From a virus, in the UHGV virus genome UHGV-0164608: a stretch of DNA of 25,274 nucleotides. One strand, written 5' to 3'. Position 1 is the first letter of the stretch. Each line of letters begins with the position of its first letter. This document shows, one piece after another, positions 15,744 through 16,235 of the stretch. The translations under genes and the position numbers were made by a program. The notes under the pieces are model-generated. The model was not told the origin of the DNA, made no database searches, and saw nothing but the letters and a program-made list of their open reading frames with translations.

Positions 15744-15977
15744 TCAATGCAGCCAGCTGTCGTCTTCCCACACCTTCTGCATAATTTTCATCACTTGTTT
15801 TCTTTCTTCGTCCAGTTGCAGTCCGGTCAGTTCCACACCGTTAGAGCTACCTTTACGGATACGGATTACCGTTTTTGGATACAGGGGGCGCAGATTGCGG
15901 TAAAGCTCGGATTCAAGGGCGTCCAGGGTAGACTGGCTAATCTTCTGCTCTTTATCGATCATTATTTCAATGCGCAT
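15744..15977 (-). CDS. DinI-family protein
   Basis: MRIEIMIDKEQKISQSTLDALESELYRNL...KIMQKVWEDDSW parallels E. coli DinI. ATG at 15977 with GAGGTGA upstream. Confidence 0.8.
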   Translation of the reverse strand: MRIEIMIDKEQKISQSTLDALESELYRNLRPLYPKTVIRIRKGSSNGVELTGLQLDEERKQVMKIMQKVWEDDSWLH

Positions 15978-15987
15978 AAAAGTCACC

Positions 15988-16176
15988 TCAGCTGATGACA
16001 TCCATTGAGCGGTTGTATTCGTGGGTTCTGATTTTTGCCATGAGTTCATCTGTCAGTTCAGAAACCCACTGCAAAGCCAGCCCCTTCTCTTCATCACTAC
16101 ACTCACTAGCCGCTACAAGCTTAAGAAAAAAATCAATGCGCTGGAGCTTCAAAGACTCCAAAAAATAGTCCTGCAT
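15988..16176 (-). CDS. Small hypothetical protein, first gene of LexA-controlled operon (possible Tum-like N-terminal part)
   Basis: 62 aa from ATG at 16176 with AGGAGGA 6 nt upstream. The stretch upstream of this ATG in the track ORF covers the promoter and LexA box. Confidence 0.5.
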   Translation of the reverse strand: MQDYFLESLKLQRIDFFLKLVAASECSDEEKGLALQWVSELTDELMAKIRTHEYNRSMDVIS

Positions 16177-16219
16177 CTTTCCTCCTATGACACCACAAGC
16201 AACACTGTATGTATAGCCA

Positions 16220-16235
16220 CTGTTTATATTTACAG
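16220..16235. promoter_or_regulatory. LexA box (CTGT-N8-ACAG: CTGTttatatttACAG) in the promoter of the small-ORF/DinI-like operon
   Basis: Exact match to the CTGT-N8-ACAG SOS-box core with AT-rich spacer, 44-59 nt upstream of the start codon, overlapping a TTTACA ... TATACT promoter-like region on the minus strand. Confidence 0.65.

Follow-up and report, generated by a model that had tools for sequence, protein, structure and literature searches.

The minus strand at positions 15744..16235 of the virus genome UHGV-0164608 raises the question of whether a small open reading frame (ORF) and the DinI-like gene behind it, which follow a LexA-type box in different reading frames, are the remains of one Tum-type antirepressor gene broken by a frameshift, as an earlier note on this DNA had suggested, or two genes in their own right. 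The analysis covered the whole stretch of 25,274 nucleotides (nt), called the window below, and its results argue for two genes: the locus is very probably the SOS induction module, in its two-gene tumA–tumB form, of a Fels-2/186-like Klebsiella prophage of the P2 family. The tumA–tumB operon is an already known switch of Fels-2/PSP3-type prophages, and there is nothing biologically unexpected in it. Its elements are listed here in the order of transcription, with the coordinates of the window and the protein lengths in amino acids (aa).

16232..16260, minus strand: predicted p95-like sigma-70 promoter, read from the sequence, with the −35 hexamer TTTACA at 16260..16255, a 17-nt spacer and the −10 hexamer TACTGT at 16237..16232.
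16220..16235, minus strand: LexA (SOS) box CTGTAAATATAAACAG, overlapping the −10 hexamer TACTGT.
16185..16181, minus strand: Shine–Dalgarno (SD) sequence GGAGG of the 62-aa ORF (tumA).
15988..16176, minus strand: tumA-type gene (ORF1) of 62 aa, from the ATG at 16176 to the TGA at 15990..15988, predicted to encode a LexA-controlled antirepressor of CI.
15989..15984, minus strand: the own SD sequence of tumB, GAGGTG, overlapping the stop codon of tumA.
15744..15977, minus strand: tumB-type, DinI-like gene (ORF2) of 77 aa, from the ATG at 15977 to the stop codon at 15746..15744.
15655..15690, minus strand: putative intrinsic terminator at the position of 186 t95a, a hairpin AGGCGAUGAUCAAUCAGAUAUCGCCU in the predicted RNA fold followed by the U-run UGUUUUUUG.

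The LexA-type box had been described as lying over the promoter of the 62-aa ORF, and the perfect box at 16235..16220 indeed contains part of the −10 hexamer. A single CTGT-N8-ACAG motif is present in the window, where 0.24 would be expected, and since 20 of 100 shuffled sequences also contained at least one match, the count by itself is weak evidence and the weight rests on the placement and conservation of the box. The 20-mer tactgtaaatataaacagtg agrees with the consensus TACTGTATATATATACAGTA at 17 of 20 positions. In each of the nine phage loci compared (186, PSP3, Fels-2, SopEPhi, a Gegevirus, ESSI2_ev129, Cronobacter ESSI-2, a Yersinia phage, and the window), a perfect CTGT-N8-ACAG precedes the tumA-type start by 36–66 nt. 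In a survey of 40 loci, which included one genome per species, the box was present in 38, in 29 as a perfect motif and in nine as CTG-N10-CAG at the same place, and one of the two loci without a scored box ends at a contig edge. On this distribution, predicted LexA control is a feature of the tumA family. The layout of the promoter follows that of 186 p95 (TTCACA, 18 nt, TACTGT) and is conserved in the Fels-2, SopEPhi, and Gegevirus loci; by homology to p95, the 16232..16260 segment would function as a promoter. It was not reported by a generic promoter scan because TACTGT agrees with TATAAT at only three of six positions. A second, degenerate LexA-like box (GTGGCTATACATACAG, 16205..16220, minus strand) abuts the perfect one, and its ACAG half is perfect while the other half reads GTGG. 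Fels-2, SopEPhi, and the Gegevirus have retained it, as have several genomes with the main box 63–67 nt upstream, and it is absent where this distance is approximately 38 nt; the two boxes may form a tandem LexA site.

A known counterpart of the operon is that of phage 186, where p95 is repressed by LexA, and Tum binds CI and blocks its binding to the operators (Lamont 1989, Shearwin 1998, according to the passages on 186 in PMC7708051 and PMC3121763). The 186 record shows tum behind the LexA-repressed p95, whose −10 box is TACTGT, and the partial terminator t95a after it. The length of 146 aa and the DinI-like C-terminal half, which the earlier note had given for 186 Tum, agree with this record and with the alignment of ORF2 given below. 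In PSP3, the corresponding GenBank entries are a 60-aa tumA, “similar to 5′ end 186 tum; UV induction of prophage”, and a 77-aa tumB, “similar to dinI and 3′ end of 186 tum”. Lemire et al. 2011 (PMC3121763) stated that tum of Fels-2 and PSP3 is split in two by a stop codon and that the upstream gene carries the antirepressor activity; the passages concerned refer to Bunny et al. 2002 and to a personal communication from G. E. Christie.

The second ORF, which begins 10 nt after the first as had been observed before, encodes a protein that matched the Pfam DinI family (PF06183) over the full profile with its residues 14–76 (81.3 bits at a cutoff of 24.2, 6.6e-23) and DinI of the PDB entry 1GHH at 2.7e-6, and it belongs to phrog_189. 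It is 41% identical to residues 71–145 of 186 Tum (E 3e-24) and, by manual count, approximately 78% identical to PSP3 TumB. Its score against the NCBIfam DinI equivalog NF007893 was 42.7 bits, under the cutoff of 111, and therefore the gene was regarded as a phage DinI-like paralogue of the TumB type rather than a chromosomal dinI.

For ORF1, no match was found in Pfam and NCBIfam scans, nor among solved structures searched by sequence with the TumA family profile. Its relation to Tum emerged when its profile was enriched with diverse relatives, the 86 hits obtained when 1.84 billion cluster representatives were searched exhaustively with HMMER: hhalign then aligned residues 4–44 of ORF1 to residues 4–44 of the 186 Tum N-terminal half without gaps, with 96.9% probability (E 1.3e-10). 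A comparison by hhalign with shallow alignments (number of effective sequences, Neff, 1.5 and 2.7) gave the same ungapped register at a probability of only 14.8%. The PHROG families cross-match in the same sense, as ORF1 is a member of phrog_698, which the Tum N-terminal half also matches (5.9e-6), and ORF1 matches phrog_1993, the family of PSP3 TumA (0.0022). By eye, ORF1, the Tum N-terminal half, and PSP3 TumA have the signature C-x6-LAL-x-[LW]-[IV]-[AS]-[ED]-[LI] in common, and a 60-aa Yersinia phage protein annotated as “tum protein” is visibly intermediate between the ORF1 and Tum N-half types. The alignments to 186 Tum, which the earlier note had called for, were obtained for both ORFs, for ORF1 by profile only, and together led us to conclude that ORF1 and ORF2 correspond to the two halves of Tum, as had been surmised. 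From the activities described for 186 and PSP3 (PMC3121763), ORF1 would be a tumA-type antirepressor of the prophage CI. AlphaFold2 modelled TumA as a two-helix hairpin (helices 2–23 and 28–61) with a predicted local distance difference test (pLDDT) score of 87, and Foldseek of this hairpin against the PDB returned generic helical hairpins only, none at E ≤0.001. The TumA profile also matched nine stretches of a 1205-aa metagenomic protein (P0284, E 2.5e-9). These lie in the HEAT repeats of a NACHT protein, so the match was attributed to resemblance of hairpin shape and homology was rejected.

The tumB frame, which is +1 relative to ORF1, is open upstream as far as an ATG at 16049 (a 101-aa ORF), and both frames are open over the 62 nt at 16049..15988, with an A5 run at 16036..16032, in agreement with the earlier note. 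Together with the existence of 186 Tum, a fused protein of such kind, this arrangement speaks for a Tum-like gene of approximately 140 aa that was broken by a 1-nt indel and became a pseudogene, or was split by a sequencing error in the A5 homopolymer. Nevertheless, we consider this explanation extremely improbable. The comparison of the window with SopEPhi over the whole ORF1 revealed 18 synonymous and 7 nonsynonymous changes in the ORF1 frame, and 4 : 24 and 1 : 24 in the other two. Within the 16049..15988 overlap, the ORF1 frame had 9 synonymous and 3 nonsynonymous changes, the tumB frame 2 and 12. Examples of the synonymous exchanges are CTC/TTG for Leu and AGA/CGC for Arg. Purifying selection through this overlap is therefore confined to the ORF1 frame, and residues 39–54 are the most conserved part of the ORF1 protein. 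At the other side of the junction, tumB retains an SD-like GGGG/GAGG of its own and an ATG in every locus compared.

The distribution of the two ORFs points in the same direction. A search with 15600..16400 as a query retrieved the two-ORF sequence at a coverage of at least 80% from 56 records of Klebsiella, Salmonella, and Escherichia phages. The two-gene layout is shared by many prophages that were sequenced independently, which by the terms of the earlier note also speaks against a broken gene. Stand-alone homologues of the 62-aa ORF, which the earlier note had itself regarded as incompatible with a broken gene, make up 484 protein clusters, all short and derived from many independent projects. 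In the 40-locus survey a stand-alone tumA ORF of 56–78 aa (62 aa in 33 loci) was present in every genome, from Escherichia to Pantoea, Erwinia, Tatumella, and Izhakiella. No full-length fusion with a DinI domain was present among the 86 distant cluster representatives; the lone oddity, P0261, is a 52-aa fragment in which tumA is joined to tumB residues through a deletion. Given the stand-alone homologues, the variable frame of tumB, and the selection on the ORF1 frame, the proposal of one broken gene is refuted, and a relevance of the A5 run has no support.

The same overlap could also suggest that the gene pair is read as one by a programmed +1 (or −2) ribosomal frameshift within 16049..15988, yielding a TumA–TumB fusion beside the separate products, and the two frames are in fact open together over 62 nt both in the window and in Fels-2. 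We give this possibility next to no credence. A fusion would require a +1 shift, but slippage at an A-run is preferentially −1 and would enter the third frame, and in SopEPhi the run is replaced by GCGAAAATC and is not conserved. A DinI-like gene lies 8–13 nt past tumA in 21 of the 40 surveyed loci, and because the spacer varies in this range, tumB occupies all three frames relative to tumA (0, +1, and +2 in 6, 6, and 9 loci, respectively). The tumB frame of SopEPhi and the Gegevirus is open upstream for just 14 unrelated codons, and in PSP3 the spacer is 3 nt and tumB lies in frame with tumA, with an in-frame stop codon between them, 3 nt before tumB. Of the hallmarks of programmed frameshifting, no slippery site, frame offset, or trans-frame peptide was found to be conserved.

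If the genes are separate, as we conclude, fused 186 Tum calls for an explanation. In 186 tum, internal starts are annotated, the last of which is a GTG giving a 76-aa “truncated Tum”. The sequence gcaaAGGAGGgcaaaGTG is translated there as ...AKEGKV... and also provides the SD sequence and GTG start of this truncated Tum, a double role that is expected if loss of a stop codon fused two adjacent genes. A 63-aa “Tum protein” without a DinI gene is found in the 186-type lineage, behind a 186-like p95 and followed by a DNA methylase gene, and of the best 120 relatives of the 186 N-terminal half 14 continue into DinI-like sequence, in a list that seems biased to short or truncated entries. By parsimony, we infer that the 186 fusion is probably derived and the two-gene layout the common state. 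Four members of the family of the 186-type Tum N-terminal half (P0145, P0146, P0174, and P0176) carry ...FSVVFPRHLLM...RR(A/G)(R/K) in place of ...FSVVFSAPPVDETFAKEGK. This variant is what the loss of one T would produce from the T6 run of 186 tum (L001 7240..7300), and in the coordinates of 186 the resulting frame would stop at a TGA overlapping the GTG start of truncated Tum (GTGA). These sequences are natural or assembly-derived toggles between fused and split tum.

Two separate genes might still act only jointly, their products rebuilding a 186-Tum-like antirepressor as a noncovalent heterodimer in which neither partner is enough alone. The fusion of the halves in 186, the joint presence of tumA and tumB in 21 of the 40 genomes, and the closeness of the genes, with the SD sequence of tumB lying over the stop codon of tumA and a hairpin across the junction (15999..15982), can be cited for it. 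However, the 19 other genomes of the survey have tumA without a DinI-like gene within 1.5 kb, and tumA with a LexA box and no DinI gene occurs likewise in ESSI2_ev129, Cronobacter ESSI-2, and the Yersinia phage, as well as in the 186-type lineage mentioned above. The upstream gene of PSP3 was reported to encode the antirepressor activity alone, and nonpolar dinI deletions in the Gifsy operons left induction unaffected (PMC3121763). Obligate joint action is thus unlikely, if somewhat less so than a broken or a frameshifted gene. The junction hairpin itself (GTCATCAGCTGAGGTGAC, followed by TTTTAT, 15982..15999, minus strand) extends across the stop codon of tumA and the SD sequence of tumB and was flagged by a terminator scan. 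It could couple the translation of tumB to that of tumA, and it is not evident in the SopEPhi or Gegevirus loci.

The tumA–tumB operon of the window was also compared with each known system as a whole. The closest is Fels-2 (STM2728/STM2726.1): the 15600..16400 segment has 97.1% DNA identity to this Salmonella phage, with the same 62-aa and DinI genes, the 62-aa protein is 98.4% identical, and the LexA box, the 10-nt spacer, the +1 frame relation, and the place after gene A are all identical to those in the window. The differences lie in CI, which is 41% identical overall (71% in the N-terminal and 29% in the C-terminal domain), in the downstream cargo gene, and in the host, Salmonella Typhimurium LT2 versus Klebsiella. 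In PSP3 (AY135486/NC_005340), too, gene A is followed by a p95-like promoter with a LexA box and by two genes, but its TumA is too diverged for pairwise alignment, its genes are separated by a stop codon only, with the 3-nt spacer and common frame described above, and its CI has a duplicated helix-turn-helix (HTH) domain. The p95 operon of 186 (Lamont 1989; Brumby 1996; Shearwin 1998) resembles that of the window in that TACTGT is both the −10 box and half of the LexA box, the Tum halves are homologous to ORF1 and ORF2, a terminator follows, and CI is of the same 186 type; it differs in having the halves in one frame, and 186 orf97 has no homologue in the window. In the dinI-gfoA/gftA operons of Gifsy-1/-2/-3, too, a small antirepressor is encoded together with a DinI homologue behind a LexA box, and the repressor remains uncleaved, but dinI stands first there, the antirepressor and repressor families are unrelated, and the phages are lambdoid, not P2-like (PMC3121763).

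The surroundings of the operon are those of a P2-like Peduoviridae prophage, and the window matches Klebsiella phage KP12 with 100% identity. The replication gene A (gpA; 18744..16330, minus strand; Pfam Phage_GPA, 1.6e-127) lies upstream of the operon, and the 62-aa ORF thus stands after gene A in a P2/186-like genome with a 186-type CI, as expected of a Tum-type gene. The repressor gene maps as follows.

21495..22091, plus strand: 186-type CI immunity repressor of 198 aa (Pfam Phage_CI_repr and Phage_CI_C).

This CI is 33% identical to 186 CI and 35% to PSP3 CI, and divergent Apl-like and CII-like genes beside it complete a 186-type lysis–lysogeny switch. The Pfam scan of CI found no S24 peptidase domain; since the repressor cannot cleave itself, an antirepressor is needed for SOS induction, and by analogy with 186 the CI encoded at 21495..22091 would be the target of TumA. 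A LexA-controlled operon in a 186/Fels-2-type element whose CI is without an autocleavage domain is consistent with the SOS-inducible prophage that the earlier note had predicted.

The terminator-like hairpin after tumB was missed by the generic promoter/terminator scan, and the z-score of the 106-nt stretch containing it is only −1.77. An Rfam search of the whole window gave no match. Next to the operon, a 225-aa ORF (14952..15629, minus strand) with a lipoprotein-type N-terminus (…ILTGC) belongs to phrog_1353, a family of unknown function. It occupies the same place as 186 orf97, and homology of the two was rejected (E 3.8). This ORF may be co-transcribed with the operon by read-through of the terminator at 15690..15655. 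Three consecutive cargo ORFs of 217, 142, and 377 aa (12422..14643, minus strand) are situated between the tum operon and the portal gene, a region in which accessory genes are common among P2-like phages; they fall into PHROGs 9664, 11490, and 12777 (unknown function) and gave no Pfam or PADLOC match. Between cI and int, a 558-aa gene (22112..23788, plus strand) codes for a protein matching the PD-Lambda-1 antiphage defence protein (PADLOC 7.3e-120; Pfam DUF4041 and T5orf172/MUG113), a defence cargo of the prophage.

Taken as the SOS induction module of this prophage, the tumA–tumB operon would work as follows. In the lysogen, host LexA bound to the box over the p95-like −10 hexamer, just past gene A, would keep the operon silent. 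Upon DNA damage, activated RecA would promote the self-cleavage of LexA and tumA–tumB would be transcribed. The TumA hairpin is then predicted to bind the 186-type CI and stop its operator binding, whereby pR would be derepressed and lytic growth would begin. TumB, translated from its own ribosome-binding site, may act on RecA filaments, tuning or timing the SOS signal, and would be dispensable for antirepression. Part of the transcription would pass the terminator into the downstream cargo gene. The two genes would be separate by design, and 186 Tum a fused variant that retains the internal ribosome-binding site and start of the DinI half. In this scheme the binding of LexA, the TumA–CI interaction, and the role of TumB are adopted from the literature or from homology.

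Several points weigh against the assignment of the locus to this module. LexA binding, TumA–CI binding, and the inducibility of the prophage itself all rest on inference. Pairwise BLASTP gave no alignment between ORF1 and 186 Tum, and the homology is carried by profiles. In the passages on PSP3 in PMC3121763, the antirepressor assignment is a personal communication, that is, cited second-hand. Finally, practically identical TumA proteins are paired with quite different repressors: TumA is at least 98% identical among seven phages (the window, ST11-OXA245phi3.1, Kp4871-2, Cartapus, Kp4846-2, Fels-2, and ST15-OXA48phi14.1) whose CI proteins are only 34–62% identical overall. Therefore, TumA either recognizes a conserved part of CI or is unmatched to CI in some of these phages.

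The divergence of these CI proteins is unevenly distributed. Among the seven phages, the N-terminal HTH domain of CI is 59–83% identical (mean 72%) and the C-terminal domain 25–61% (mean 37%); against the CI of 186 or PSP3, which have other TumA types, the values are 36–48% and 24–34%, respectively. The TumA type thus tracks the N-terminal and not the C-terminal domain of CI, in a small sample of seven phages that is confounded by shared ancestry. Such a pattern fits recognition of the DNA-binding domain of CI by TumA and does not prove it. The linker is another strongly divergent part of the CI proteins that accompany near-identical TumA, and in two of them the N-terminal HTH domain is duplicated, as it is in PSP3 CI. 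It is conceivable, though we advance it only tentatively, that TumA proteins form a large family of self-sufficient LexA-controlled antirepressors for which the link to DinI is optional, having been made, broken, and, in phage 186, once fused, and in which one TumA may serve many CI variants via their N-terminal domain. In that case, P2-like prophages that differ in CI type and reside in the same cell could be inducible in trans by each other's TumA.

The public records label the 62-aa gene as “hypothetical” or, wrongly, as “levan regulatory protein”, no Pfam or NCBIfam model exists for the TumA family, and its PHROG families are marked as “unknown function”. Very likely, however, tumA is the gene that makes widespread P2-like prophages of Klebsiella, Salmonella, and E. 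coli inducible by DNA damage. The main value of the finding lies therefore in annotation: naming tumA would allow the inducibility of prophages to be predicted from their sequence, and such prediction would also extend to prophages with defence cargo, as exemplified by the PD-Lambda-1 gene of the window.

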